Shown here in pieces: positions 22,695 through 34,036 of a stretch of DNA of 64,000 nt. The DNA is from an uncultured beta proteobacterium (GTDB lineage: Bacteria > Pseudomonadota > Gammaproteobacteria > Burkholderiales > Usitatibacteraceae). Within the stretch, counting starts at the first letter, position 1; every line of letters starts with the position of its first letter. The notes under the pieces are model-generated. The model made no database searches. It saw only the letters and a list, made by a program, of their open reading frames with translations, and was not told where the DNA came from. The stretch covers positions 1,106,680 to 1,170,679 of the forward strand of contig CAVOQC010000001.1 of the NCBI GenBank assembly GCA_963698265.1, in the 5' to 3' direction. The position numbers were made by a program, and so were the translations under genes.

Positions 22695-25600
22695 CTAGGG
22701 GCTCGCCCGGCGGGCCCTCGCGATGTCGGCGCGAAGATTCGCGCCGGTCTTCCACTTGCTCAGGGCCGGCGCGATGCTGTCGAGGACGGCGGTGGCCTCG
22801 GCGAGCAGCGCGGCGCGCCTGGCCGGCTCGGCGAGCGCCGAAACATAGACGGCGTGGGCGTACTCGAAGTGCTGCAGGTGGGAATCGTGGCGGCGCGCGA
22901 GCTGCTTGCGATGGAACTCGAGCGCCGGCTGCAGGATCTCGCGCGCCTCCGCCAGCCGCCCCTGGCGCGCGACGGCCTCGGCGAGGTACACCTGGAACAC
23001 GGCGCCTTCGCGCTCGGTCCCGAACAGGTCACGGCGCGGCAGCTTGGCGTGCTCGGCGACCATGACGCGTGCCGCCGCTTCCGCGGCCGCGAAATCGCCC
23101 AGCTCCAGGGACGCGAGGCCGATGATCTGGCTGGCGCGGATGCGAAAGCGGCCGAACCACTCCACGTCGGCCTGGCTCTCGGGCTTGATGTCGCCCAGCC
23201 CCCCCAGCGCGGTTCGCGCCTGCTGCAAGGCCTTTCGCGGGTCGCCCTCGAGGTACGGCAGGTACGCCTCGTAGGCTTCGAGCCACAGGCGCGAGAAACC
23301 GACGATCATCGGCGCGGAAGTCGGCTTGATGTACGTCTCCCACAGGCGCCGGCTTTCCGCGACCGTGGCCTTCGCCGCTGCATGGTTGCCGAGCTCGGCG
23401 TCGATTTCCGCCGAGATCCCCAGCCAGATCATCGCGTTTCGCGCCTGGAAGGAGCCGATCTTGGGCATCTGCTCGCGCACCTGCGCGGCGGAGCGGAACT
23501 TGTCGCGTGCCTCGGCGAGGCGGCCCGACTCCATGAGGGCGCCGGCCGTTCGCTGCCGCGCCACGCCCAGGTTGTTCAGGGAGGCCGTATTGGTGGAGGC
23601 GACCTTCACCATGCCTTCGTAGAGGGCCTCGTTCTCGCGCAGGAGCACCATCGCCTTCGCGATCCGCAGGTCGAACACCTCCAGGTCGGAGAGGGCGCCG
23701 AGCACGAGCCCCTTGGTGTGGATCGCCGTCGCATGGCCGGGCATTGCGTCGAGGACCTTGTTGGCGATCGCGAGCGACTCCTCGTTCTTCGCGCGGGACT
23801 CGGGCCACTTGCCCGTATCGTAGAGCGCGTCAGCGAGCCACGCGCCGGCGTTGGAATAGCCGGCGGCGGCCGAGAGGTCCGCGAGGCCCGGCGCGCCCAG
23901 CCGGCGGAAAACCTCCTGGGCCTCCTGCAGGTAGCCGATGGCTTTCCGGGCATCCCCGAAATTGCGCGTGGTGTAGCCCATCCCGGTGAGCAGCTCTCCG
24001 TACTGGCGAAGCACCGCGACCGAAGGCTTGGGCGAGGCCTCGACGAGCGGCTTCAACTCGGCCTGCGCGGCTTCGCCGGCGCGCAGGGCCTCCGCGTGCT
24101 TGAGCTGGTTCACGAGAATCATCGCCTGGTAGCTCAGGGCGCTGCCCAGGCCCAGGCGCGTGGCTTCCGACGAATCTCCCTGGGAGCCCAGCCGGCGGAA
24201 GACGGCCTCGGCTTCCTTCAAGGCGACGAGCCCCTCCTCGTGCTTGCCCTGGCGGCGCGCGACGGCGCCGGCGCGCACGAGCGCCATCGCGCGGTTGCGC
24301 TCCGTGTCGGGCGTGCGAAGTTCCGGGGGCAGGCCCTTGTAGTAGTCGAGGGCGCGATGGGCGAGCGAGGCCACGATGTCGATCCGGCCGACGGGATCGA
24401 GTTCGCGCACGAAATCGTCGAGCAGGTAGACGAGGAGCTTCTCGGACTCGCCGCGCGCCGACTCGGCCAGCTGCCGCGTCTGCTGGGCCTTCGCTTCGGC
24501 TTCCTTGGCGCGGTTCATGTTCACGTAGCCGAAGACGGCGCCAACCACCGCGAGTATCGCAAGCACGGAGGCGCCCGCGGCCACCTGGCGTGCGCGCACC
24601 AGCGCCTTGCGCGTGGCGGCCTCGCGCTCGCGCTGGGCCTCGAGCTGGCGCTCGGCGTTCTCGCGCGCCTCGCGCGCGAGCCGCATCTCGCGGCTGGCGC
24701 GGACGACCCCGCACAGCACGTCGTGGGTGAGCTCCACGCGGCGCACGTCGAGGCGCTCCTCGATGCGCAGGAGCCGCCGGTTCACGAGCGTGGGCAACGC
24801 ATCCGGGGAGGCGCCCGCGGCTTCGAACGCCTTCACCACGCGTTCCTCCGCGAGGCTCTCTCGGTAGCCCGAGTCCGTGAGCAGCTCGTCCTCGATCACC
24901 TTGCGCACCGCCGGCGGCTGGTCGGCGAGCACGCGCTCGTAGAACTCGGCGAGGATCGTGTCGTGGGAGCCCGCCAGCAGGTCTGCGGAGATCTCCGCGC
25001 GGCCCTGGGCGAGGCGCGTGTTGTTGAGTTCCCGGCAGATGAGCGACAGGAGCGAGGGCTCGACCTCGGCGTTGCGCAGCTCCGAGCCCCCGGCGATGAA
25101 GCGCACGATCGCCTCGGCCACCTCTTCCGAGACGAGATCGCCGCCCGGCTTCATCACGGCGGAGAGCGCCTGCTGGCCGTTCATGCGGGCAAGCCGCATG
25201 CGATTCTGGGTGATCGAGGGCATTGCGCCCTTGAGCCCCTCCAGGTGCGCGAGGTAGTCCTCGCGCAGCGCGATGAGGATGCGGTAGTCGGCGCGGCCGA
25301 AGTCGAAGCGCTCGGGAACGGAATCGTCCGACTCGAGCTTCGCCTCGAGCGCCTTCGGGGGCCGGTTCTCCACGAGGTCGGCGAGATCCTCGATGAACTG
25401 CGCGGCGCGCGCCTTGCCTGCATCGTCGGCCTGGGCGAGCGTGAAGACCTCCTCGAACTGGTCGAAGATCAGCAGCGGAATGACGGTCTTGCCGCTGGCG
25501 TCCTTCAGGATGTCGTCGCGGTGGTGCAGGAACTCCCAGAGCGATTCGCCCTCGGCCGCCGTGCCCGGCTGCGTCCACGTTCCCGAGGACTGCGTCGCGC

Positions 25601-25934
25601 GGAAGATCGCCGCCTTGATCTGCTCCGTGGGCGGCGGCGAATCCGGCGAATAGTCGACGCGCACGTAGACGGGGCAGTACCCCTCCGGCCGCAGCCTCGG
25701 CACGATGCCCGCGCGCAGGATCGAGGTCTTGCCCAGGCCCGACTGGCCGAAGAGGATCGTCAGGAGCTTGCGCTGCACGCGCCGGCCAAGCTCGGCGACC
25801 TCCTCTTCGCGGCCATGGAAGAAGCCGCGCGTTTCCTCCGTGTACGAGGCGAGGCCCAGCCAGGGATGCTGCGGGTCGATCGCGGGGGAAGACCCCGGCG
25901 CCGCGTCCTGCGCCTTCGCGGTCTCCGCGCTCAT
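22695..25934 (-). CDS. STAND-type P-loop NTPase (nSTAND-like) with internal TM helix and TPR-like C-terminal half
   Basis: N-terminus PWLGLASYTEETRGFFHGREEEVAELGRRV-x-LLTILFGQSGLGKTSILRAGIVPRL (Walker A at 25722-25748). Walker B VIPLLIFDQFEEVF. Helical/winged-helix region ending RRVELTHDVL. Coiled coil, then hydrophobic helix VAAGASVLAILAVVGAVFGYV (24522-24584), then about 600 aa of TPR-like repeats. The start ATG overlaps the upstream TGA (25931-25934). The track ORF extends to 26213, but that extension overlaps the upstream gene. Confidence 0.85.
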   Translation of the reverse strand: MSAETAKAQDAAPGSSPAIDPQHPWLGLASYTEETRGFFHGREEEVAELGRRVQRKLLTILFGQSGLGKTSILRAGIVPRLRPEGYCPVYVRVDYSPDSPPPTEQIKAAIFRATQSSGTWTQPGTAAEGESLWEFLHHRDDILKDASGKTVIPLLIFDQFEEVFTLAQADDAGKARAAQFIEDLADLVENRPPKALEAKLESDDSVPERFDFGRADYRILIALREDYLAHLEGLKGAMPSITQNRMRLARMNGQQALSAVMKPGGDLVSEEVAEAIVRFIAGGSELRNAEVEPSLLSLICRELNNTRLAQGRAEISADLLAGSHDTILAEFYERVLADQPPAVRKVIEDELLTDSGYRESLAEERVVKAFEAAGASPDALPTLVNRRLLRIEERLDVRRVELTHDVLCGVVRASREMRLAREARENAERQLEAQREREAATRKALVRARQVAAGASVLAILAVVGAVFGYVNMNRAKEAEAKAQQTRQLAESARGESEKLLVYLLDDFVRELDPVGRIDIVASLAHRALDYYKGLPPELRTPDTERNRAMALVRAGAVARRQGKHEEGLVALKEAEAVFRRLGSQGDSSEATRLGLGSALSYQAMILVNQLKHAEALRAGEAAQAELKPLVEASPKPSVAVLRQYGELLTGMGYTTRNFGDARKAIGYLQEAQEVFRRLGAPGLADLSAAAGYSNAGAWLADALYDTGKWPESRAKNEESLAIANKVLDAMPGHATAIHTKGLVLGALSDLEVFDLRIAKAMVLLRENEALYEGMVKVASTNTASLNNLGVARQRTAGALMESGRLAEARDKFRSAAQVREQMPKIGSFQARNAMIWLGISAEIDAELGNHAAAKATVAESRRLWETYIKPTSAPMIVGFSRLWLEAYEAYLPYLEGDPRKALQQARTALGGLGDIKPESQADVEWFGRFRIRASQIIGLASLELGDFAAAEAAARVMVAEHAKLPRRDLFGTEREGAVFQVYLAEAVARQGRLAEAREILQPALEFHRKQLARRHDSHLQHFEYAHAVYVSALAEPARRAALLAEATAVLDSIAPALSKWKTGANLRADIARARRASP
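24522..24584 (-). other. Predicted single transmembrane helix inside the STAND NTPase (residues about 451-471)
   Basis: 21 uncharged residues VAAGASVLAILAVVGAVFGYV, flanked by RKALVRARQ on the N-side and NMNRAKE on the C-side. Confidence 0.6.
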
Positions 25935-27328
25935 GCGCCGCCCCGGCCGCCGGTGCTCGTGAGCTCCTTCAGGCGGTTCACGAACTCCGGGGTTGCGGCG
26001 CCACCCGGCAACTGCGTGAGGTGCACGGCCTTGAACTTGTCGGGCACGCGCGCGCCGCGCGGGTCCGTGTCGTCGATGCACACCGGCAGGATGAAGATCG
26101 CCTCGTCGGCCATGTTGCGCGTGCGGTCCAGTGCGTAGCTCCATTCGCGGCGGAAGTAGGCCTCCAGCCGGCGGTCCGTCGTGGCGGAGACCACCGGGAT
26201 GAAGTAGGAGCATCGCGCGATGTTCTTCTGGATCTTGCGGTCGTAGTCGTCGCCGCCTTCGAGCCGGTCCATGTCGAACCAGGTCGTGATGCCGGCGGCG
26301 TCGAGCCCGCTCTTCAGTTTCTGCACGGCCGCGAGATCCTCGCGCGCGTAGCTCACGAAAACCGCGTTGTCGGGCATCTCGCGCTCGGGCGGCAGGAAGC
26401 GCTGCGGTGCCGCGCCCAGCGCGATCACCTCGCCCGGCTTGCGCCGCGCCGTCCAGCGGCGATGCAATTCGTCCACGAACTGCTCGGCGCCGCTGTAGAC
26501 GCGGGTGCGCACGCTCACCTGCTGGAGAAACGCCATCAGGCGATCATCCTGGTCGGAATGGTCGTCGGCGAGCACTTCGCCCACGTCGCGCGGGTCGGAG
26601 AGCCGCCGGCGCTTGGCCATGCGCAGGAACAGGCGCGCGAGCCAGTTCGAGAAGTTGCTGCCGATGAGGAGCAGGTGGCTGTGCTCGAGCTCGTAGAAGA
26701 GCTTCTCGGGCGTCAGGTGCTCGCTCTGCAGCGCGCAGACGAATTCGAGCACGTCCTCGTCGGAGATCACGTAGGTGGGCGAGGCAGAAACGCGGCCGAG
26801 CAGGTGGTAGACCACGGGCCGCTGCAACTGCTCGCGCTCGCCCGGCAGGTCCGCCACGCGGTTGGGCGCGTAGCTCACGACCTCCGTGGACTGGGCCCCC
26901 GCAAACCTCGTCTCGTTGATCGCCTGCTCGAGGAAGGTATCGAAGGTGGTCGAGACGAAGAGGTCGAAGTCGGTGATCTCGGCGAGCTGGCGAAGCGCCT
27001 TCGGCGGCGCGAAGTTCGTGTCGCGCAGGATGGCGCGCATGCGCGTGTAGGTGTCCTCGCGGCGCCCGCGCGCGGAGAGGAACCAGCAGACGACGTCGTT
27101 CAGCGTGTAGGGCTGCGGCAGGCGCGTCGTGTCCACGCCGAGCTTCGCGGCGAGCTTTTCCGCCATCCAGTCGTAGAGCAGGCGCGGGCCCGATTCCGTC
27201 TCGACCTTGAGGAGTTCCGGGCCGACGATGGGAATGACGCGTCTTTCCTCGATGAAGTCGAGGAGATCCTCCCAGGCGTCCTCGTCCAGCGTGGGCAGCG
27301 GCGTTTCGAGCGCGTGCACGTTGCTCAC
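25931..27328 (-). CDS. SIR2-like (SIR2_2-type Rossmann) domain fused to a C-terminal TIR domain
   Basis: The N-terminal domain shows the SIR2_2 motif order with substitutions: VIPIVGPELL, FVSTTFDTFLE, PVVYHLLGRV, LLLIGSNFSNW. The C-terminal TIR is VFVSYAREDLAAVQKLKSGLDAAGITTWFDMD...YFIPVVSATT...EAYFRREWSYAL...ILPVCID. Confidence 0.85.
   Translation of the reverse strand: MSNVHALETPLPTLDEDAWEDLLDFIEERRVIPIVGPELLKVETESGPRLLYDWMAEKLAAKLGVDTTRLPQPYTLNDVVCWFLSARGRREDTYTRMRAILRDTNFAPPKALRQLAEITDFDLFVSTTFDTFLEQAINETRFAGAQSTEVVSYAPNRVADLPGEREQLQRPVVYHLLGRVSASPTYVISDEDVLEFVCALQSEHLTPEKLFYELEHSHLLLIGSNFSNWLARLFLRMAKRRRLSDPRDVGEVLADDHSDQDDRLMAFLQQVSVRTRVYSGAEQFVDELHRRWTARRKPGEVIALGAAPQRFLPPEREMPDNAVFVSYAREDLAAVQKLKSGLDAAGITTWFDMDRLEGGDDYDRKIQKNIARCSYFIPVVSATTDRRLEAYFRREWSYALDRTRNMADEAIFILPVCIDDTDPRGARVPDKFKAVHLTQLPGGAATPEFVNRLKELTSTGGRGGA
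25994..26368 (-). other. TIR domain (residues about 321-445) with candidate catalytic Glu395 (codon 26144-26146)
   Basis: (F/V)(V/I)SY...D start motif, and the S-x-W-x-x-E-like region aligned to FRREW. Confidence 0.7.
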
Positions 27329-27551
27329 GGGTGCAGACCTCGGGACGAAGGAGACGACGGCTGGAACGGAACCGGCACGGATGCACCCCCAGGTTTCGTT
27401 TCGAGTCCGGCGGGAAGGAACTGAACCCCGCGCGGCTGCGCCCCGGGGTCGGTTGCCCCGCTCGGCGCGGATGCAGCAAAGGGTAGGCCAAACTGCGCCA
27501 TTTGAATAGCCGGACTATCATCGGCGCTCGCGCATCGACCGGAATATCCCC

Positions 27552-29429
27552 ATGAAGCATGAGACGCCCGGCGCGGGAAACGCCGCGGAGGACAGCGCCG
27601 AGGAGGCGAGCGCGCGTGCGCAGCGCGAGCTCGATCGAGGCGAGCCGCTGCTCGCCTGCAACACGGCGCAGGCGGCGCTGGACCGCTGGCCGGAGCATGC
27701 GCGCCTGCGGCAACTTCACGCCCTGGCGCTGGTGCGAAGCGGCGACCTCGAGCGCGCGAACCGGATCCTCGCCGCGCTGGCCGCTGAGGGCAGGGACGAC
27801 GCGGAGACCCTCGGGATGCTCGCGCGCACCCACAAGGATCTCGCGCTGCGCGAAGCGGAAGGGCCGCGGCGCCGCGAGCACCTCGAGGCGGGATTCAGCC
27901 TCTACGAACGGGCCTTCGAATCGGCGCGCAAGCGCGGCGCCGTGGCGGACGCGTCCTACACCGGCATCAACGCGGCGACGATGGCGGTCTTCATGGACGA
28001 CCTCCCGGGCGCGCGCCGGATCGCTTCCGCCGTGCGGGAGGCGTGCGGACGCGACGAGGGCCGCAAGGCGCCCGAGCCGGCGCGCTACTGGAGGGAGGCC
28101 ACCCTCGGGGAGGCGGCGCTGATTCTCGGCGATGCCGGGGAGGCGGGCGTGCGCTACCGCAAGGCGAGGCTGCTCTCGGGCAAGCGCTTCGGGGATCTCG
28201 GCACCACGCGCCTGCAGGCGCGACGGCTTCAGGCGCGCCTCCCCGCGACCGGCGTGGACGTGGACGCGCTCCTCGCCGTTCCGCCGGTGCTCGTCTTCAC
28301 CGGCAACATGGTCGATGCGCCGGAGCGGGAGGCTGGCCGATTTCCGGCCGCGCTCGAGCCGGCGGTGCGCGAGGCGCTGCGCGAAGCCCTCGCTGCGATC
28401 GCCCCTCTCGCGGTGTACGGGTCCGCCGCCTGCGGAGCCGACATCCTCTGCCTGGAACTCGCGCGCGAGCGGGGAGCCGAGACCCACGTCGTGCTGCCGT
28501 TCCCGCCCGCGGAGTTCCGGCACGCGAGCGTCGATTTCGCCAGCGGCGACTGGGGCGAGCGATTCGAGCGGGCGCTCGCCGCGGCCCACAGCGTGACGGT
28601 GGCGAGCGACCATCGCGCGAGCGGCAGCGCGGCCTCCTTCGAGTACGCGAACCTCATCGCCACGGGCATGGGGCGGCTGCGGGCGCAGGTGCTCGACGCC
28701 CCGCTGCGCGCGCTCGCGGCGTGGGATGCCGGCGTGCCGGCGTCGCCGGGAGGTGCGGCCTCGGTCGTCTCGCTGTGGCGCTCGCGCGGAATCACCGTGG
28801 ACACGGTGGACCTCGCGGCGTTGCGCGCGGACGAAGGCTCGCCCGCTTCCGCGACGCCGGCGGCTTCCGTAGCGGCGACCGACGGCGCCACGCGCCACGA
28901 GCTGCGCGCGATGCTCTTCGCCGACGCCGTCGGCTACAGCCAGCTGAGCGAGGACCAGATCCCGCGCTACATCTCCGGCTTCCTCGGGGCCGTGGCCGAG
29001 CTGAGCCGGAAGACCGCGCACCCCTTCGAGCACGTCGAGACTTCCGGCGACGGGCTCTACATGGTGTTCGCGACCGTGGCCGACGCGGGCCAGTTCGCCC
29101 TCGAGCTGAGCGCGCTCGCCAACGGTCTCGACCGCGCGGCCTGCGGCCTGCCGGAGCGCTTCAACCTGCGCATCGCGCTGCACTGCGGCCCGGTGCACTG
29201 CGGGCGCGACCCCATCACCGGTTCGCGCCTCTACACCGGCCCGCACACCAGCCGCACGGCGCGAATCGAGCCGATCACGCCGCCGGGGCAGGTCTACGCG
29301 AGCAGCGCCTTCGCCGCCGTTGCCGCGGCGAGCGGCGCCGACGGGCTCGCGATGGGATATGTCGGGCGCATGCCGCTCGCCAAGGGATACGGTACGCTCG
29401 GCCTGTACCACGTCCGTCCGGCCCACTGA
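27552..29429 (+). CDS. Three-domain signalling protein: TPR-like (MAP3K TRAF-binding/DUF4071-like) + Rossmann SLOG-like + class III nucleotidyl cyclase
   Basis: N-domain motifs ETLGMLARTHKD, YTGINAATMAVF, RYWREATLGEAALILGD. Middle domain VLVFTGNMVDAP...RFP...LAVYGSAACGADILCLELARERGAETHVVLPF. C-terminal cyclase domain (28899-29411) MLFADAVGYS...ETSGDGLYMVF...LRIALHCGPV...GPHTSRTARIE. Confidence 0.85.
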   Translation: MKHETPGAGNAAEDSAEEASARAQRELDRGEPLLACNTAQAALDRWPEHARLRQLHALALVRSGDLERANRILAALAAEGRDDAETLGMLARTHKDLALREAEGPRRREHLEAGFSLYERAFESARKRGAVADASYTGINAATMAVFMDDLPGARRIASAVREACGRDEGRKAPEPARYWREATLGEAALILGDAGEAGVRYRKARLLSGKRFGDLGTTRLQARRLQARLPATGVDVDALLAVPPVLVFTGNMVDAPEREAGRFPAALEPAVREALREALAAIAPLAVYGSAACGADILCLELARERGAETHVVLPFPPAEFRHASVDFASGDWGERFERALAAAHSVTVASDHRASGSAASFEYANLIATGMGRLRAQVLDAPLRALAAWDAGVPASPGGAASVVSLWRSRGITVDTVDLAALRADEGSPASATPAASVAATDGATRHELRAMLFADAVGYSQLSEDQIPRYISGFLGAVAELSRKTAHPFEHVETSGDGLYMVFATVADAGQFALELSALANGLDRAACGLPERFNLRIALHCGPVHCGRDPITGSRLYTGPHTSRTARIEPITPPGQVYASSAFAAVAAASGADGLAMGYVGRMPLAKGYGTLGLYHVRPAH

Positions 29430-29430
29430 C

Positions 29431-31356
29431 TTGCCGCTCCTCCAGCTCTCCGAAATATCGCTCGCCTTCGGCCACGTGCCGCTCCTCGACCACGCGAGCC
29501 TCGTGATCGAGCCGGGCGAGCGCGTCGGGCTCATCGGGCGAAACGGCACCGGCAAGTCGAGCCTGCTCAGGATCATCGAGGGCACGGCGCGCGCCGACGA
29601 CGGCGAATCCCGGCTCGCCGCGGGTGCGAAGCTCGCGTTCGTGCCGCAGGAGCCCGCCTTCGCGCCCGGGCAGACGGTCTACGAGGCGGTGGCCGACGGG
29701 CTGGGCGCGAGCGCGCGCCTGCTGGTGGACTACCACGCGGTGGCCCATGGGCTCGCCGCGCATCCCGGCGGAGCCGAGGAGGCGGCGTTGCTCACCCGCC
29801 TGCACGATCTCCAGGAGGCGCTCGAGGCGGGCGACGGCTGGACGCTCGCGCACCGGATAGAGGCCACGCTCTCTCGCCTGGCACTTCCCGAGGACACGCT
29901 GGTGGAGGAGCTCTCGGGAGGGCTCCGGAAGCGCGTGGCCCTCGCCCGTGCGCTGGTGCTCGAACCCGACCTGCTGCTCCTGGACGAGCCCACCAACCAC
30001 CTCGACGTCACGGCCATCGAATGGCTCGAGGACACGCTCGTCGCCTTCCCCGGCGCGGTGCTCTTCGTCACCCACGACCGGCGCTTCCTCGACCGCGTGG
30101 CGCTGCGCATCGTGGAGCTCGACCGCGGGCGGCTCGCCGACTTCCCCGGAAACTTCAGCGCCTACGAGGCGCGCAAGGCGGAGATGCTCGCGAGCGAGGC
30201 GGTAGTCAACCGCAAGTTCGACAAGGTGCTCGCCCAGGAGGAGGCGTGGATCCGCAGGGGCGTGCAGGCGCGGCGCACGCGCGACGAAGGCCGGGTGCGC
30301 AGGCTCGAGGCGCTCCGGCTCGAGCGCGCGGCGCGCCGCGAGCGCGTGGGGCGCGTGGACATCGCCCTCTCGCCGGGCGAGCGCTCCGGCAAGCTCGTGG
30401 CCGAACTCGAGGCGGTGAGCAAGCGTTTCGGCGCCAAGCGCGTGGTGGAGGCGTTTTCCACGCGGGTGATGCGCGGCGACAAGATCGGCCTCATCGGCCC
30501 CAACGGCTGCGGCAAGTCGACGCTGCTGAAGCTGATCCTGGGCGAGATCGAACCGGATTCCGGCACGGTGCGCCTGGGCACGAAGGTCACCATCGCCTAC
30601 TTCGACCAGTTCCGCGCGGCGCTGGACGAGGAAGCCACGCTCGCCGACACGATCTCTCCCGGCGCCGACTTCGTCGAGATCGACGGTACGCGCAAGCACG
30701 TGATCAGCTACCTCGGCGATTTTCTCTTTCCGCCGGAACGCGCCACTGCCCCGGTGAGGACGCTCTCCGGAGGCGAGCGCAACCGCCTGCTGCTCGCGCG
30801 CCTCTTCAGCCGGCCCGCGAGCGTCGTGGTGCTGGACGAGCCGACCAACGACCTGGACATCGAGACGCTGGAACTCCTCGAGGCGCTGCTGCAGGACTAC
30901 ACGGGCACGCTCTTCCTCGTGAGCCACGACCGGGCCTTCCTCGACAACGTCGTCACGCAGACGATCGCCTACGAAGGCGAGGGCCGGTGGAAGGAGTACG
31001 CGGGCGGCTACTCGGACTGGCAGCGCGCGCGGCGTGCCGCCCCGGAACGGGCAGGCGGTGGCGACGACGAGAGTGGTACGCGCGCCGCGGCGAAGGGCGA
31101 AGGGCGGGAGCCGCGCAAGCGCGCGAAGCTCGGCTTCAAGGAGGCGCGGGAGCTCGATGAGCTTCCGGGAAGGCTCGCGGCGCTGGAGCGGGAGCAGGCG
31201 GAACTCGCCGGCCGCCTCGCGGACCCGGCGCTCTACCAGGACCGCAGCGTGGACCTGAAGGCGCTCAACGCGCGCCGGGAAGCGATCGAAGCCGAACTCA
31301 CGGGCCTGCTCGAGCGCTGGGAGATTCTGGAAGCCAAGTCCCGGTCGTCGCGCTGA
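29431..31356 (+). CDS. uup: ABC-F family ATPase Uup
   Basis: Collinear with E. coli Uup throughout: two ABC cassettes (GRNGTGKSS, LSGGLRKRVALARAL, LLLDEPTNHLD; GPNGCGKSTLLKL, LSGGERNRLLLARL, LDEPTNDLD), the linker QEEAWIRRGVQARRTRDEGRV, and a C-terminal coiled coil. The only start compatible with the conserved N-terminus is TTG 29431, 1 nt after the upstream stop. Confidence 0.9.
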   Translation: MPLLQLSEISLAFGHVPLLDHASLVIEPGERVGLIGRNGTGKSSLLRIIEGTARADDGESRLAAGAKLAFVPQEPAFAPGQTVYEAVADGLGASARLLVDYHAVAHGLAAHPGGAEEAALLTRLHDLQEALEAGDGWTLAHRIEATLSRLALPEDTLVEELSGGLRKRVALARALVLEPDLLLLDEPTNHLDVTAIEWLEDTLVAFPGAVLFVTHDRRFLDRVALRIVELDRGRLADFPGNFSAYEARKAEMLASEAVVNRKFDKVLAQEEAWIRRGVQARRTRDEGRVRRLEALRLERAARRERVGRVDIALSPGERSGKLVAELEAVSKRFGAKRVVEAFSTRVMRGDKIGLIGPNGCGKSTLLKLILGEIEPDSGTVRLGTKVTIAYFDQFRAALDEEATLADTISPGADFVEIDGTRKHVISYLGDFLFPPERATAPVRTLSGGERNRLLLARLFSRPASVVVLDEPTNDLDIETLELLEALLQDYTGTLFLVSHDRAFLDNVVTQTIAYEGEGRWKEYAGGYSDWQRARRAAPERAGGGDDESGTRAAAKGEGREPRKRAKLGFKEARELDELPGRLAALEREQAELAGRLADPALYQDRSVDLKALNARREAIEAELTGLLERWEILEAKSRSSR

Positions 31357-31552
31357 GCGCATTCCGGGCGGGCCGCCGCGAGCCGGCGCGATGCGGCCCA
31401 GGGCCGCGCTGGCCGGACCATTACACGTGAAATCGGGAGAGTGATCCGCGGCGCAGCCCGGTGCATTCGCCCGTGCTATGAATGGCGTATCTGGAACGCG
31501 GAACTTCCGCTCAACGCTTCAGGCGAAGCCAGCTCGCCGATCATCGCCACAT

Positions 31553-34036
31553 ATGCTCAACAGCACCGAATCGCTGGAACTCCTCCCCGTCGACGATCAT
31601 CCGCCCGCCCTCCGCCCCGGCGAGCGCGCGAACCTGCTTGCGAGCTGGCCGATGCCGCCGGTCTCGCCATGGGCGCCCGGCGAGCTGGGCGAAGGGCCCG
31701 AGCGGGCGCACCTGGATTACGCGGCCGGCCGTCGCGTCGCGGGCGAGGCGTTCATCCTCGGCGCGGACGACGGCGTCCTGTTCCGTGCGGAAGGCGGGAG
31801 TTCACGGGAGCACTGGGTGCCGTTGCGCGATTTCCGGGCGCTGTCCCTCACCCGCCCGCTGGCCCTGGCCGCCCCGCCCTCCGATGGCGCGTGGCTGCGC
31901 CGGCGATACCGCCTCGAGCTCGTGGACGGCACCGTTCGCGAAGGCGAAAGCGCCGGGATGGTGCGCACCGACCTCGGCATCTTCCTGTACCCGCCTGCCG
32001 GGGACGCGTCCGTGGCAAGGCACTTCATCCCATCCGGCAGAGTGCGTGGGTTCGACTGGACGGGCGCCCCGCGCGGACACGTGCAGCTCGACCTCGACAA
32101 TATCGTGGCGCCGCCGGAGCCCGCGGCAACGGAAGCGCCCGCCGCGAAGGAAATCGAGACCATCAACGACCTCCGGGAGACGCTCGCAAGGCTCGCCCGA
32201 AGCCCCATTCGCCGGCTCGGCGAGGTGCTCGTCGATCTCGGCCACATCAGCCAGGCCCAGCTCGACGAGTCGCTCGACCGCCAGCTCGCGGACAAGGACA
32301 AGCCCCTGGGGGAGGTGCTGATCGAGATGGGCGTCGTGAAGGCCGACCAGCTGAAGGCCGTGCTCGCACAGAAGCTGGGCATCCCGCACGTGGACGCCCG
32401 CGTTTTCCCGGCGGACCCGCAGGCCCGGCTGCTCGTGCCAAGGGCACAGTGCCGCAGGCACAAGCTGATTCCGCTGTGCTTCGACGACGACGGCGGAATC
32501 GTCGTCGCGATGGACAACCCGATGTCGGGAGAAGCGCTGCAGGCGGTGCGCTTCTCCTCCGGCCGCCGTGTCGTCCCGGTGCTCGGCAGCTGGCCGGACA
32601 TCCGCGCCGCGCTTGGTTCGCGCGACGTCTGGGCCACCCATGCCTTCCTGGGCGCGCAGGCGTCGCCCGAACCGACGGCGAAGCCCGGCGTGGAAGCCCA
32701 GTTCGTGGACGCGATCGAGTTCGATCTCGACGGCGTCACCGAGCTCACGACGAAGCTCTCGCTCGAGACGACCTCCCTGGATGCGGAGCCCTCCGATACG
32801 GTGAAGGAGAGCGACTCCACGCTCGTCCGGCTCGTCAACAAGATCATCCTGGACGGACACGAGGGCGGCGCCTCAGACATCCATTTCGAGCCCGCCCCGG
32901 GAAACCGGCCGACGCGCATCCGCATGCGCCGTGACGGCGTGCTTTCCGATTACGCCGAGCTGCCCGCGAAATTCCGCGCGGCTATCGTCTCGCGCATCAA
33001 GATCATGGCGAACCTCGACATCTCGGAGCGCAGGAAGCCCCAGGACGGGAAGATCGATTTCTCGCGCTTCGGGCCGGCGAAGCTCGAACTGAGGGTCGCC
33101 ACGATCCCGACCAACAATTCGCTGGAAAGCGTGATCCTGCGCCTGCTCGTCTCGCATGAGCCGATCCCGGCGGACAAGCTGGGCCTCGATGCGAAGGTCC
33201 TCGCCACACTTCGTGTTCTCGCGGAGCGTCCCCACGGGCTCCTGCTCGTGTGTGGTCCCACGGGCTCGGGCAAGACGACCACGCTTCACTCGCTCCTCGC
33301 GATGATCAACACGCCGGAGCGCAAGATCTGGACGGCCGAAGACCCGATCGAGATCACGCAGGCCGGCCTGTCGCAGGTCCAGGTCAATCCCAAGACCGGC
33401 TGGGGATTCGCGGATGCGCTGCGCGCCTTCCTGCGCGCCGACCCCGACGTGATCATGATCGGCGAGATGCGCGACAAGGTGACCGCCGAGACGGCCGTGG
33501 AGGCCTCGCTCACCGGGCACCTCGTTTTTTCCACGCTGCACACGAACAGCGCGCCCGAAACCGTGACGCGGCTGCTGGACCTCGGCGTGGACCCGTTCAA
33601 TTTCAGCGATTCGCTCCTGGGCGTTCTTGCACAGCGCCTCGTGCGCCGGGTCTGCCCGGCATGCTCGAAGAGCGTGGAGCTGCCCGAAGAAGAGGCCCTG
33701 CGCCTCGCCGCCGAGTTCTCGGACCCAGCGGCGCTCGAGCCGGCATCCGTGCTCGCGGACTGGAGGGCGCGTTTCGGCAGGAACGGCGCCCTTTTCACGG
33801 CGAAAGGCGAGGGCTGCGAAGAGTGTCTCGATTCCGGCTACAAGGGCCGCCTCGGCGTGCACGAGTTCATGGCGTCCAGCGCCGGCACCCGCTCGATCAT
33901 CCAGTCGCGCGGCGCGGCCGAGGCGCTACGAACGCAGGCGCTCTCCGAAGGCATGCGCACCCTCAAGCAGGACGGGATCGAGAAGATGCTGATGGGGCTC
34001 ACGACCCTGGAACAGGTGCGGGGCTCGTGCGGTTGA
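31553..34036 (+). CDS. GspE/PilB/MshE-family secretion ATPase with MshEN-like domain and an extra N-terminal domain of about 215 aa
   Basis: C-terminal ATPase: GLLLVCGPTGSGKTTT (Walker A), DPDVIMIGEMRD (Walker B region), GHLVFSTLHTN, and the tetracysteine CPAC...CEEC. The T2SSE_N/MshEN repeats lie at 32213-32374. Confidence 0.88.
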   Translation: MLNSTESLELLPVDDHPPALRPGERANLLASWPMPPVSPWAPGELGEGPERAHLDYAAGRRVAGEAFILGADDGVLFRAEGGSSREHWVPLRDFRALSLTRPLALAAPPSDGAWLRRRYRLELVDGTVREGESAGMVRTDLGIFLYPPAGDASVARHFIPSGRVRGFDWTGAPRGHVQLDLDNIVAPPEPAATEAPAAKEIETINDLRETLARLARSPIRRLGEVLVDLGHISQAQLDESLDRQLADKDKPLGEVLIEMGVVKADQLKAVLAQKLGIPHVDARVFPADPQARLLVPRAQCRRHKLIPLCFDDDGGIVVAMDNPMSGEALQAVRFSSGRRVVPVLGSWPDIRAALGSRDVWATHAFLGAQASPEPTAKPGVEAQFVDAIEFDLDGVTELTTKLSLETTSLDAEPSDTVKESDSTLVRLVNKIILDGHEGGASDIHFEPAPGNRPTRIRMRRDGVLSDYAELPAKFRAAIVSRIKIMANLDISERRKPQDGKIDFSRFGPAKLELRVATIPTNNSLESVILRLLVSHEPIPADKLGLDAKVLATLRVLAERPHGLLLVCGPTGSGKTTTLHSLLAMINTPERKIWTAEDPIEITQAGLSQVQVNPKTGWGFADALRAFLRADPDVIMIGEMRDKVTAETAVEASLTGHLVFSTLHTNSAPETVTRLLDLGVDPFNFSDSLLGVLAQRLVRRVCPACSKSVELPEEEALRLAAEFSDPAALEPASVLADWRARFGRNGALFTAKGEGCEECLDSGYKGRLGVHEFMASSAGTRSIIQSRGAAEALRTQALSEGMRTLKQDGIEKMLMGLTTLEQVRGSCG
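32213..32374 (+). other. Tandem MshEN-type motifs (possible c-di-GMP binding site)
   Basis: RLGEVLVDLGHISQAQLDESLDRQ - LADKDKP - LGEVLIEMGVVKADQLKAVLAQK. Compare the published 24-residue motif RLGxx(L/V/I)(L/V/I)xxG(L/V/I)(L/V/I)xxxxLxxxLxxQ. Confidence 0.5.

Follow-up and report, generated by a model that had tools for sequence, protein, structure and literature searches.

A SIR2-like/TIR protein coupled to an nSTAND1 NTPase, with a facultative cyclase-bearing partner: a module that looks like a variant of known anti-phage signalling systems

The core of the locus is a two-gene unit formed by gene A, which encodes a SIR2-like domain followed by a TIR domain, and gene B, which encodes an nSTAND1 NTPase, a TM helix and TPRs; a third protein, C, is a facultative part of the module. 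The gene structure, domains, residue conservation, co-localisation and evolutionary-rate pattern reported below are direct observations. As a whole, the module resembles known anti-phage signalling systems, of which it would be a variant not described before. Our tentative reading, to which we give a probability of roughly 0.45, is an NLR-like, TIR-based conflict signalling module, most likely anti-phage, in which B would sense, A would cleave NAD and C would read the product.

Gene organization and surroundings

The features of the locus, numbered within the 64-kb window (the whole stretch of DNA that was analysed), are as follows.

22695-25934, minus strand: gene B, 1079 aa from the ATG at 25934, stop codon at 22695-22697 (ORF and translation)
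22698-24497, minus strand: TPR region of B, residues 480-1079 (Pfam TPR_12, TPR_4)
24519-24587, minus strand: single predicted TM helix of B, residues ~450-472 (Kyte-Doolittle up to 2.35)
24633-25865, minus strand: nSTAND1 NTPase domain of B, residues 24-434 (Pfam, E 5e-33)
25722-25748, minus strand: Walker A of B, GQSGLGKTS, with K69 (sequence)
within the NTPase domain, minus strand: Walker B-like LLIFDQFEE of B, around D148 (sequence)
25931-25934, minus strand: ATGA stop/start overlap of A and B (sequence)
25931-27328, minus strand: gene A, 465 aa, GTG start, SIR2-like + TIR (ORF and translation)
26015-26362, minus strand: TIR_2 domain of A, residues 323-438 (Pfam, E 3e-18)
26144-26146, minus strand: codon of the catalytic Glu395 of A, within TIR_2
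26522-26962, minus strand: SIR2_2 match of A, residues 123-269 (Pfam, E 8e-11)
27329-27551, no strand: divergent spacer between A and C, 223 bp (sequence)
27552-29429, plus strand: gene C, 625 aa, TPR-S + Rossmann-like + class III cyclase (ORF, Pfam)
27660-27983, plus strand: TPR-S match of C, residues 37-144 (Pfam, E 3e-19)
28272-28826, plus strand: Rossmann-like beta/alpha middle domain of C, residues 241-425 (AlphaFold2 secondary structure)
28887-29420, plus strand: class III nucleotidyl cyclase domain of C, residues 446-623 (Pfam, Foldseek)

The ORFs and the sequence agreed with an earlier note on this DNA in the three genes, their coordinates, the ATGA overlap and the 223-bp divergent spacer. 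In GCATGAGC the TGA of A occupies 25931-25933 and the ATG of B 25932-25934. Of 83 related loci, 82 have B adjoining A. In 66 of 82 loci the base before the stop codon of A is A, G or T, which would give B a possible ATG, GTG or TTG start with a 4-nt overlap; the translational coupling that had been proposed is thus upheld. A scan of the spacer for the sigma-70 consensus, which is unsuited to a genome of ~69% GC, gave no match. As the same note had described, the module is flanked by two housekeeping genes, encoding PPK2 and an ABC-F (Uup-like) ATPase, and no mobility genes were found adjoining it. In the window C is divergent from A-B, with uup directly 3' of C on the same strand, and there are no tRNA genes. 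The flanks carry no defence-island signal except generic ABC-ATPase matches, and no copy of the module was found among the viral contigs of IMG/VR. The closest relatives share the synteny around the module (aminotransferase, uup).

Domains and conserved residues of A, B and C

The SIR2-like, TIR and STAND domains assigned earlier were recovered by Pfam as SIR2_2, TIR_2 and nSTAND1. In A, the SIR2_2 match sits inside an N-terminal SIR2-like domain of ~300 residues that has no PDB relative by sequence. At the site of the canonical SIR2 TTNYD, A has TTFD (T128); among 242 family members this position holds Thr 213 times and Asn 5 times, while H175 is conserved in 202 and G36 is invariant. Because the canonical catalytic Asn is missing in 98% of the family, the SIR2-like domain is probably not an NADase. 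The TIR domain aligns with NADase TIRs, and its E395, conserved in 241 of 242 members, pairs with the KEL-motif Glu of TIR-APAZ (SPARTA) chains, taken here to be the catalytic residue. A is thus predicted to combine an intact, NAD-cleaving TIR with a degenerate SIR2-like domain, so that of the NAD-consuming SIR2/TIR effector suggested before, probably only the TIR part holds. Its closest similarity is to SPARTA effector TIRs of the NAD-depleting kind and to the SAVED-TIR models of CBASS, and this TIR is nearer in sequence to the SPARTA effector type than to the ThsB signal makers; being close to the NAD-depleting type, it may have no dedicated messenger product. The A family comprises 1505 representative clusters at E<=1e-30, and one database protein of 465 aa is 100% identical to A. 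PADLOC (2023) returned only TIR-domain matches for A, no match for B, Avs and bNACHT included, and no match for C.

The TM helix of B, which the STAND NTPase had already been noted to carry, is a hydrophobic helix that recurs in 59 of 60 full-length orthologues. Its flanks contain a mean of 5.2 K+R on the N side versus 3.3 on the C side, and Cys makes up 0.66% of the N domain versus 0.10% of the C-terminal part; this asymmetry and the Cys-poor C-terminal part suggest an N-in/C-out topology. The TPR region is the presumed sensor, possibly periplasmic. Across species, identity is 73-90% for A and 72-87% for the NTPase domain of B but only 28-49% for the TPR end, and a fast-evolving TPR end next to a conserved NTPase is what one would expect if B were an immune receptor.

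The AlphaFold2 model of C has a mean pLDDT of 86.9. Its TPR-S lies within an all-helical N-terminal region of ~230 residues (helices at 16-229 in the model). The middle domain has the conserved motifs F-T/A-G-H/N-M-x-D, R-F-P, S-A-A-C-G-A-D-x-L-x-x-E and V-L-P-F, and it matches neither Pfam nor any PDB sequence. A Lichenicola plasmid encodes this domain by itself, as a protein of 194 aa, between two TIR genes. In C it had been described as a Rossmann (SLOG-like) domain; the model agrees with Rossmann-like, whereas the SLOG identity was not supported, as no sequence or profile test linked the domain to SLOG families. The TPR-like N-terminus and the class III cyclase were borne out by Pfam and, for the latter, by Foldseek: Guanylate_cyc scores 25.6 bits on residues 448-590 against a cut-off of 21.9, and the fold matches Rv1900c, Cya2 and CyaB (E ~1e-7 to 1e-6, target TM 0.7-0.8). 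The metal-binding D458 and D500 and also R571 are conserved, E496 occupies the first base-specifying position, and S567 replaces the usual transition-state Asn, the family having Ser or Thr there. With the fold confirmed and both metal Asp and the Arg conserved, the cyclase is plausibly active, although the Ser/Thr replacement argues against activity; the sequence alone does not tell which substrate it uses.

Distribution of the A-B pair and of C

The A-B pair or its relatives occur in at least 596 species genomes, a recurrence that, with the possible overlap in most loci, argues that the pairing is not due to chance. Relatives of A at 43-48% identity likewise precede nSTAND1 genes, whose products have WD40, TPR or FGE-sulfatase ends, the FGE-sulfatase-ended partner being DGR-linked; among the loci examined, the distant pairs with WD40 or FGE-sulfatase ends lacked a C-like gene. 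Two gene orders place C beside A-B in 36 of 53 informative species; it is absent in 17, a count limited to loci with adequate flanks. The neighbourhood among homologues thus confirms the co-localisation of A and B and the linkage of C, while the three-gene unit first proposed reduces to a pair with a facultative third member. The C paralogues of the two gene orders are only 33-40% identical to each other, whereas A is ~79% identical there. In some loci B is followed, instead of C, by a PGDYG gene and a SLATT-like gene, the latter encoding a 2TM protein, or by a second STAND gene. Paralogous extra A-B pairs and additional STAND genes also occur, toxin-antitoxin genes lie within ~5 kb in some loci, and a third form of C, with added cNMP-binding and HTH domains, stands beside a distant A-B pair.

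For the C family, 80 loci from metagenomes gave 10 with A/B and 23 with another TIR protein, and in 15 of these 23 the TIR gene lies within ~300 bp; about half of the well-flanked loci had no TIR neighbour. Small proteins made of an uncharacterised domain and a TIR are encoded directly 3' of C-family genes. On two plasmids, TIR, TPR-S and the C-type middle domain appear in further fusions and operons, TPR-S being fused to or encoded beside TIR. A ThsI-like plasmid protein carries Pfam TPR-S in a locus resembling type VIII Thoeris, where the neighbouring TIR is 56% identical to the validated type VIII ThsB.

Comparison with known systems

A has no Pfam match to DUF4062, which we take to be DrHyd. 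The nSTAND1 counter-invader systems of Kaur et al. (2021; eLife, PMC8195603), compared here by domain strings, share with the module the defining nSTAND1 domain of B and a separate NAD-directed effector gene directly upstream of it. Their source data contain nSTAND1+TM+TPR/BetaPropeller strings 412 times, as well as the operons 'TIR+DrHyd-> nSTAND1+TM+BetaPropeller' and 'TIR+DrHyd-> nSTAND1+TPR'. They differ from our module in the label 'TIR+DrHyd', given the missing DUF4062 in A; a 'SIR2+TIR' partner is absent from the source-data tables; A and B have only ~20-30 residues before their first domains and no evident effector-associated adaptor; and a TPR-S/cyclase third gene is not described in that work. 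Given these nSTAND1+TM and TIR-effector-upstream operons and the TPR-bearing ThsI (10.64898/2025.12.03.692087), the parts of the module are already in the literature; what stands of its earlier description as unrecognised is the combination, PADLOC having placed no protein of the three in a named system.

Like Avs/AVAST, including SIR2-fused Avs5 and TIR-fused forms, the module would control an NAD-consuming effector through a STAND protein with a variable repeat sensor, and B pairs a quickly evolving sensor with a conserved NTPase. Unlike in Avs, the effector A is a separate, translationally coupled two-domain protein rather than an N-terminal fusion, the NTPase of B is of the nSTAND1 clade, with no Avs/bNACHT match in PADLOC, a TM helix lies between NTPase and sensor, and a third gene is often attached.

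Thoeris types VII and VIII combine a TIR with the SLATT effector ThsH or with the CMP-hydrolase/TPR effector ThsI, respectively, and use a cADPR signal; ThsI is cADPR-responsive and is reported to carry Aravind's TIR-signalling TPR domain, SLATT is the other cADPR-responsive effector type, and one signal can be served by either effector or by both (10.64898/2025.12.03.692087). That study explicitly excluded Avs-linked TIRs. Our module resembles these types in its TIR with an intact catalytic Glu and a TPR-S partner, and the SLATT-like 2TM protein that can take the place of C mirrors the ThsH/ThsI alternative. It differs in that the TIR of A is fused to a SIR2-like domain and linked to a STAND NTPase, whereas ThsB is a sensor standing alone; in that C has an N-terminal TPR-S followed by Rossmann-like and cyclase domains, whereas ThsI begins with a hydrolase and shows no detectable similarity to C outside TPR-S; and in that C is divergent in the window rather than in the operon. 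With type I ThsA (SIR2 + SLOG) the locus shares a SIR2_2-family domain and a TIR, but the SIR2-like domain of A lacks the catalytic Asn and is fused to TIR rather than to SLOG, which is not demonstrable anywhere in the locus.

Proposed mechanism and alternative readings

We infer the biochemical steps as follows, together with the trigger, the membrane topology and the way in which signals pass between A and C. B would be the sensor and switch, a STAND ATPase anchored in the inner membrane by one helix, whose fast-evolving and possibly periplasmic TPR end would bind the trigger. Ligand-induced oligomerisation is established for STAND/NLR proteins, and on that basis ligand binding would cause the NTPase domains of B to oligomerise. 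The oligomer would then recruit or re-order A, made in step with B through translational coupling, with the degenerate SIR2-like domain as scaffold or adaptor; the TIR domains would form composite active sites and cleave NAD+, lowering NAD+ and releasing ADP-ribose-type products. Where C is present, its TPR-S would read such a product and switch on the Rossmann-like and cyclase domains, so that C might turn an NAD-derived signal into a cyclic nucleotide or else drain the nucleotide pools.

The ATGA overlap, the near-constant adjacency and the distant A relatives that precede nSTAND1 genes argue for coupling of A and B, and the divergence of the TPR end beside a conserved A and NTPase points to a receptor-like B. 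Retention of Glu395, the rarity of the SIR2 Asn and the alignment with NADase TIRs are consistent with an active TIR and a degenerate SIR2. C is tied to A-B by its presence in 36 of 53 species, by the two gene orders with distant paralogues and by the cNMP-binding/HTH form, and to TIR in general by the other-TIR neighbours and the plasmid fusions and operons. For TPR-S as a reader of TIR signals speak its presence in the ThsI-like protein, the response of ThsI to cADPR and the SLATT-like alternative partner. Against A making a messenger stands the affinity of its TIR to the SPARTA effector type and not to ThsB, and against C as its reader the 17 species without C and the TIR-free half of the well-flanked C-family loci.

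In another reading, rather unlikely in our view, A-B would be a self-contained Avs-like abortive-infection pair whose TIR depletes NAD+ once B is triggered. C would be either an independent signalling protein that is a neighbour by chance, or a regulator acting upstream of A-B or in parallel, with a TPR-S that senses something else and a cyclic nucleotide that tunes A-B expression or activity. It would fit the 17 well-flanked species with A-B alone, the distant pairs lacking a C-like gene, the SPARTA- and SAVED-like TIR, the divergent orientation of C with uup directly after it, and the C-like protein with cNMP-binding and HTH domains, which hints at transcriptional regulation by cNMP. However, C was recruited in two gene orders by paralogues of low identity, its family repeatedly adjoins unrelated TIR proteins, plasmids join TPR-S to TIR, and neither A nor B has a cNMP-binding domain in Pfam with which to receive its signal. 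The last point also weighs against a Pycsar/Pucsar-like direction, which we regard as improbable, where the TPR-S of C would detect infection and its cNMP activate the TIR of A via the SIR2-like pocket, with B as co-factor. Cyclase and TIR effector pairs are established anti-phage logic (Pycsar; Pucsar, 10.64898/2026.08.12.744502), and the locus likewise brings together a cyclase domain of class III type and a predicted TIR NADase; the SIR2-like domain keeps its Rossmann-type glycine (G36) and loses the catalytic Asn, as would fit ligand binding, and the small X+TIR proteins lie directly 3' of C-family genes. Yet those small partners too lack a cNMP-binding domain in Pfam, A-B is kept as a unit without C in many species, TPR-S occurs in TIR-signal-responsive effectors and not in known primary sensors, and the STAND sensor would be left without a role. 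The cyclase also differs from Pycsar/Pucsar in being facultative, in accompanying a STAND NTPase and in forming the C-terminal part of a three-domain protein with its own sensor. Instead of the Pycsar-type upstream signal maker suggested earlier, a cyclase downstream of the TIR is more likely, given the lack of a cNMP-binding Pfam domain in A and B.

Class III cyclases have a classic role in physiological signalling. It is unlikely, though less so than the Pycsar-like direction, that the module serves physiological transmembrane signalling instead of immunity in soil and wastewater Proteobacteria, a periplasmic TPR sensing an envelope or environmental cue and the STAND switch setting NAD turnover (A) and cyclic nucleotide (C) for dormancy, stress adaptation or social behaviour. 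The housekeeping neighbourhood with its conserved synteny, the lack of adjoining mobility genes and of IMG/VR copies, and the conservation of A and of the B NTPase favour it, as do the spread over at least 596 species genomes, the predicted N-in/C-out topology with a Cys-poor C-terminal domain, and the cyclase itself. The housekeeping flanks with no defence-island signal except generic ABC-ATPase matches, the missing IMG/VR copies and a conservation of A and of the B NTPase that is unusual for defence genes also count against a conflict module. A conflict module is better matched by a sensor end of B that evolves far faster than the remainder, by the DGR-linked sensor end in a close relative of the pair, by the paralogous extra pairs and additional STAND genes, by SLATT-like pore-type partners and nearby toxin-antitoxin genes, and by the reports of nSTAND1 and TPR-S from counter-invader systems (PMC8195603; 10.64898/2025.12.03.692087).

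Locus organization and genomic surroundings

The three ORFs lie where the earlier note had placed them, and the gene overlap and divergent spacer that it described are borne out in the sequence. Gene A encodes a SIR2-like protein with a TIR domain, gene B an nSTAND1 NTPase with a transmembrane (TM) helix and TPR repeats, and gene C a protein that joins a TPR-S domain, a Rossmann-like middle domain and a class III cyclase domain.

25931-27328, minus strand: gene A, ORF of 465 aa with a GTG start
22695-25934, minus strand: gene B, ORF of 1079 aa counted from the ATG at 25934
27552-29429, plus strand: gene C, ORF of 625 aa

The minus strand reads ...GGC GCA TGA GCG..., so that the ATGA at 25931-25934 is common to the TGA of A and the ATG of B, and a spacer of 223 bp separates A from the divergent C. 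The G+C content is uniform along the window (~66-75%), the locus forms no compositional island and the window contains no tRNA genes. A promoter and terminator scan gave no informative signal. Flanking genes encode PPK2, a class I/II aminotransferase, an ABC-F (Uup-like) ATPase and an MshE-type secretion ATPase. The closest relatives of the locus are syntenic with it, having the aminotransferase, uup and a Ca/H exchanger gene in common; across the related loci the neighbours are ABC transporters, MFS transporters, a peroxiredoxin, an aminoacyl-tRNA synthetase and similar genes. Among 150 neighbouring genes scanned with PADLOC there was no defence-island signal, the matches being almost all generic ABC-ATPase cross-matches, and no A-family copies were found in IMG/VR viral contigs.

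A and B form a conserved pair with an exchangeable sensor end

A belongs to a family of full-length SIR2_2+TIR_2 proteins of ~460 aa with 1505 representative clusters at E<=1e-30. Scanning one genome per species, we found A relatives in at least 596 genomes, and the hosts of the family are mostly uncultured soil and wastewater Proteobacteria. The closest 80 of these relatives are 71-86% identical to A; they belong to Usitatibacteraceae, Casimicrobiaceae and other Burkholderiales, and also to Steroidobacteraceae and Rhodanobacteraceae MAGs. We compared the neighbourhoods of these 80 species loci and three others. B directly follows A in 82 of the 83, the remaining locus stopping at a contig edge, and a possible ATG, GTG or TTG start overlaps the stop of A in 66 of the 82. 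One species (L030, 9012-10445 onward) has a second A-B pair ~4 kb from the first, and in another (L063:14513-17755) the next gene after B is a second B paralogue of 1080 aa whose TPR end differs; such extra copies resemble a small receptor repertoire.

For six A homologues at greater distance (43-48% identity), the neighbourhoods were inspected singly. In five, the next gene encodes an nSTAND1 protein with a different C-terminal end, namely an FGE-sulfatase domain, a TPR without an annotated TM helix or, in two cases, WD40 propellers; in the sixth it encodes an unannotated 1639-aa protein. Because distant A homologues precede nSTAND1 genes of differing C-terminal ends, the general rule, as read from these gene orders, is that an nSTAND1 gene whose sensor end is exchangeable comes after a SIR2-like+TIR gene.

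At L084:8001-14860 and L085:2079-8938, an A homologue (48% identity) precedes nSTAND1 + FGE-sulfatase (C-type-lectin fold), bAvd and reverse transcriptase genes. The last two constitute a diversity-generating retroelement (DGR), which probably diversifies the sensor end of the nSTAND1 partner of the SIR2-like+TIR protein.

B has a conserved NTPase, a membrane helix and a variable TPR end

Pfam nSTAND1 (PF20703) covers residues 24-434 of B with 115.6 bits (cut-off 27.1) and TPR is also matched; the Walker A and B motifs are GQSGLGKTS (K69) and LLIFDQFEE. A single strongly hydrophobic segment at ~450-472, predicted to be a TM helix, is kept in 59 of 60 full-length B orthologues. The 15 residues beside this helix contain 5.2 K+R on the N-terminal side vs 3.3 on the C-terminal side, and the Cys content is 0.10% in the C-terminal part vs 0.66% in the N domain. 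These values fit, but do not prove, an N-in/C-out topology that would leave the TPR end outside the cytoplasm. When three species groups were compared with the window, the two domains of A were 73-90% identical and the NTPase of B 72-87%, and the TPR end of B only 28-49%, the closest relatives included. Such a pattern of rates looks like that of a receptor-effector system. PADLOC has no family for B at E<=0.1.

A combines a conserved TIR with an atypical SIR2-like domain

On A, Pfam matched SIR2_2 (PF13289, listed for every homologue shown) at residues 123-269, with 42.6 bits against a cut-off of 24.5, and TIR_2 at residues 323-438 (E 3e-18). Of 242 family members, 241 have the TIR Glu E395; in the same set D352 is invariant, and F324, S326, Y327 and W396 are near-invariant. 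A profile search of PDB sequences placed this TIR closest to SPARTA TIR-APAZ proteins and bacterial NADase TIRs, and the Glu of their KEL motif, which we take to be the catalytic one, falls at E395 in the alignment.

SIR2 NADases are recognized by the catalytic Asn of TTNYD, a catalytic His and a GAGxS NAD loop. A matches the fold and lacks this set of motifs. In an alignment made by eye (TTNYD and HG motifs), A reads TT-T-F-D in place of the canonical defence-SIR2 TT-N-Y-D, and of the 242 family members 213 have Thr and 5 have Asn at the Asn position. The dinucleotide loop is G-x-E/D, not G-A-G, with the acid in 222, and His175 is kept in 202 and replaced in 40. PDB sequence searches returned no solved structure related to this domain. 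We infer that it is not a canonical NADase and would act as a scaffold, adaptor or ligand pocket. PADLOC (2023) gave only TIR-domain matches for A, and NCBIfam added nothing for A, B or C.

C is a facultative member of the system

The presence of C was surveyed in the 80 closest of the at least 596 A species loci. In 10 loci a C homologue stands upstream of A in divergent orientation, as in the window (59-73% identity); in 26 it comes immediately after B, on the same strand (33-48% identity). C is absent from 17 loci whose flanks reach at least 3 kb each way, and the remaining 27 are on contigs too short to show it. C is thus a facultative member, and the three-gene module of the earlier note narrows to the A-B pair, conserved in 82 of 83 loci. 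The C paralogues of the two arrangements are 30-44% identical per domain, and the accompanying A proteins ~79%. Because the former are far more diverged, the comparison favours separate recruitment or rapid change over frozen synteny.

In some C-less Steroidobacteraceae loci (L056, L070, L074 and L081, in the last of which they are genes 9-10; also L066 and L076), the genes next to B encode a 156-aa PGDYG protein and a ~350-aa 2TM protein that weakly matches DUF4231/SLATT_1; the two may be an alternative effector pair.

A different variant was found 1 kb upstream of a distant A-B pair (L086:4515-6977), where an 820-aa protein joins a cNMP-binding domain, a Crp-type HTH, TPR-S, the middle domain and a degenerate cyclase-like tail in which the first metal-binding Asp is lost. 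A metagenome scan with this cNMP-binding/TPR-S protein found nothing. A longer contig of the same locus has a further TPR-S gene ~5 kb downstream.

Domains and predicted structure of C

Pfam TPR-S (PF20308) covers residues 37-144 of C with 70 bits (cut-off 27.6) and is matched in both C classes; Guanylate_cyc covers residues 448-590, just over its curated cut-off. An AlphaFold2 model built with 49 homologues (mean pLDDT 86.9, pTM 0.87) has three parts: an all-helical region at 16-229, a beta/alpha Rossmann-like domain at ~245-425 and a C-terminal alpha/beta domain. Foldseek related the last of these to the class III cyclases Rv1900c, Cya2, CyaB and sGC (E ~1e-7 to 1e-6), with a target TM of 0.7-0.8 for the first three. 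The metal-binding D458 and D500 and R571 are conserved across both C classes, and the usual cyclase Asn position is Ser or Thr; we presume these residue roles from the canonical cyclase motifs. The first base-specifying position is Glu in the class of the window and mostly Lys in the other.

The middle domain has the strongly conserved polar motifs FTGHMxD, RFP, SAACGADxLxxE and VLPF. It gave no Pfam match at E<=1 and no PDB sequence match in a profile search, and its hhalign probability against E. coli Smf/DprA and PpnN/LOG was <1%. The top 50 Foldseek matches of full-length C were all to cyclases or generic TPRs, none to this domain, and single-sequence structure prediction of the domain alone was unusable (pLDDT 38.9). 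Pfam upheld nearly all domain calls of the earlier note; the exception is its 'SLOG-like' label for this domain, which is a guess because neither sequence nor profile searches gave a SLOG link, the model showing a Rossmann-like beta/alpha topology only. PADLOC (2023) had no match for C.

The C family recurs beside other TIR proteins

A metagenome scan seeded with the middle domain found at least 504 relatives of C, and we examined 80 loci, mostly on short contigs. Nearly all encode TPR-S, middle and cyclase domains in 600-780 aa. A and/or B are present in 10 of the 80 loci and another TIR_2 protein in 23, with the TIR gene no more than ~300 bp away in 15 of the 23; of the 17 loci flanked by 3 kb or more each way, nine have a TIR partner. 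These partners comprise an unknown domain + TIR (~320-350 aa), TIR + a 900-aa tail, TIR + WD40 and a TIR-cyclase-TIR-AAA_35 protein. At L093:237-2894, a gene divergent from a C-family gene encodes a protein of the last type: its 885 aa combine an AAA_35 ATPase with a cyclase-like segment and two TIR_2 stretches.

Re-shuffled versions of the same domains were found in two further operons. On the Lichenicola cladoniae plasmid NZ_CP053711.1 (L170:5410-7768), a ThsB-type TIR of 131 aa is followed by a stand-alone middle domain of 194 aa, itself without a Pfam match, and by a TIR_2+TPR-S protein of 441 aa. In Novosphingobium sp. RL4 (NZ_CP141945.1; L169:3196-6822), a TIR+TPR protein of 548 aa is followed by pNTSase1 (158 aa) and a TPR-S + middle-domain protein of 491 aa. 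Found in plasmid fusions and operons, these Rosetta-stone type arrangements tie TIR, TPR-S and the middle domain functionally. The Lichenicola operon has a MmeI-type restriction-modification system, an addiction-module antidote gene and recombinase genes as neighbours. The Novosphingobium TPR-S + middle-domain protein has no cyclase, pNTSase1 is a 'predicted novel nucleotide synthetase' and the record is almost unannotated.

Comparison with known systems

TPR-S is believed to have been defined by Burroughs and Aravind in 2020, who reportedly proposed it as a sensor of NAD+-derived signals. In type VIII Thoeris, TIRs produce canonical cADPR upon infection, which switches on ThsI, a protein with a CMP-hydrolase-like and a TPR domain whose role in TIR signalling was predicted by Aravind; type VII also uses a cADPR signal, with a SLATT effector, and both effectors are at times in one operon (10.64898/2025.12.03.692087). 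Using a validated type VIII ThsB TIR from the supplement of that preprint as query, we found a 56% identical TIR on an E. coli IncP plasmid, beside a 402-aa ThsI-like protein that matches Pfam TPR-S (E 1.5e-17) and an adjoining TIR+SLATT pair. The plasmid is conjugative (NZ_CP147111.1; L173:2776-5972), and the type VIII-like pair lies directly beside the type VII-like TIR + SLATT/DUF4231. C carries TPR-S, the same Pfam family as the ThsI-like protein, with no similarity to it beyond that domain (middle-domain hhalign included), and is missing from 17 well-flanked species. The TIR of A resembles those of Thoeris in keeping the catalytic Glu (TIR_2 E 3e-18; E395 in 241 of 242). However, ThsB is a lone sensor and signal maker in a two-gene operon with its effector, whereas the TIR of A shares its polypeptide with a SIR2-like domain and is coupled in translation to a STAND NTPase, with C divergent in the window. 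The systematic Thoeris survey explicitly removed Avs-linked TIRs (10.64898/2025.12.03.692087).

The nSTAND1 domain was defined by Kaur et al. 2021, whose source data contain 'nSTAND1+TM' 412 times and operons such as 'TIR+DrHyd-> nSTAND1+TM+BetaPropeller'; 'SIR2+TIR' is absent from these data (PMC8195603). In such systems the sensor is a variable C-terminal array of superstructure-forming repeats, often preceded by a TM helix, and the effector is fused to the NTPase or tied to it by common effector-associated or Death-like adaptor domains. B resembles them in its TM helix and TPR, its relatives ending in WD40, TPR or FGE-sulfatase, but A is a separate effector protein coupled to B by gene overlap. 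Pfam found no adaptor domain in A or B, each having ~20-30 residues before its first domain. DGR-diversified nSTAND1 sensors have been described by Doré et al. (10.1101/2023.09.22.558884), and Pycsar and Pucsar are precedents for cyclase-TIR immunity. The parts of the module are known as families. In the accessible literature and PADLOC we found no account of the SIR2-like+TIR family as a dedicated nSTAND1 partner, a STAND-linked TIR joined to a TPR-S protein, or a TPR-S/class III cyclase fusion as a TIR-associated family.

Avs/AVAST joins effector, STAND NTPase and sensor in a single polypeptide, whereas here the effector is a separate gene; on this ground, and with no Avs model matched, we rejected an Avs assignment.

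A signalling model and its alternatives

The best-supported model, of which we infer all biochemical steps, makes B the sensor and switch. The TIR of A, co-translated with B, would cleave NAD+ upon STAND oligomerisation and, where C is present, TPR-S would read an ADPR-type product, to which the enzymatic domains of C would respond. The cyclase would then be an output and not the primary signal maker, since Pfam matched no cNMP-binding domain in either protein, A or B. Pycsar and Pucsar would be expected to have an effector with such a domain, and because it is absent we rejected a Pycsar-type reading as the main model. The model in which C reads the TIR product also explains the SLATT-like protein after B where C is absent.

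Several observations count against this model. The TIR of A is more like NAD-depleting effector TIRs than ThsB signal makers, C is dispensable in many species and its cyclase has no canonical Asn. Moreover, the genomic context shows no defence-island signs, no copies were found in IMG/VR viral contigs and the closest relatives are syntenic. Because of these points, physiological, non-immune signalling is a possible role for the module. A three-tier immune cascade, in which an extracytoplasmic-sensing transmembrane NLR-like receptor activates a separate TIR and a TPR-S protein decodes the NAD-derived messenger and emits a cyclic nucleotide, is a tentative reading to which we give a probability of roughly 0.2. 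If true, two second messengers of different chemistry would act in relay, and prokaryotes would have an equivalent of plant TIR-NLR signalling, where a downstream receptor reads the TIR product.

Should the sensor-TIR-reader model hold, STAND/NLR-type pattern receptors would be joined to TIR second-messenger (Thoeris-type) signalling, two fields studied apart, and an NAD-derived signal would be turned into a cyclic nucleotide. B would be a membrane-spanning bacterial NLR-like receptor with a sensor that is maybe periplasmic, the SIR2 fold would be re-used as a non-catalytic scaffold, and a large unnamed SIR2-like+TIR family (1505 clusters, at least 596 species genomes) would gain a function. 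The value of the finding depends on experiment; at 6.7 kb, the compact locus can be cloned directly, which makes the predictions testable.

Other observations at the locus and its relatives

Toxin-antitoxin genes lie a few kb from the module in two related loci, as a PIN gene with a weak PhdYeFM_antitox neighbour (L001:18831-19521) and as DUF3368/UPF0175 (L084:1298-2052). In three others (L017, L054 and L073), B is followed by small proteins of ~81-85 aa that are antitoxin-like by appearance only. In the window, the MshE/GspE-type secretion ATPase (31478-34036) has a ~300-aa N-terminal extension before its MshEN domain, with no Pfam match. At 29320-29440 of the window, the longest ORF of uup would run ~110 bp into the 3' end of C; because uup orthologues begin near LPLLQLS, the true start is probably at ~29434, directly past the stop of C. 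Gene uup may be co-transcribed with C, and the C-then-uup order is seen again in three related loci (L007-L009).
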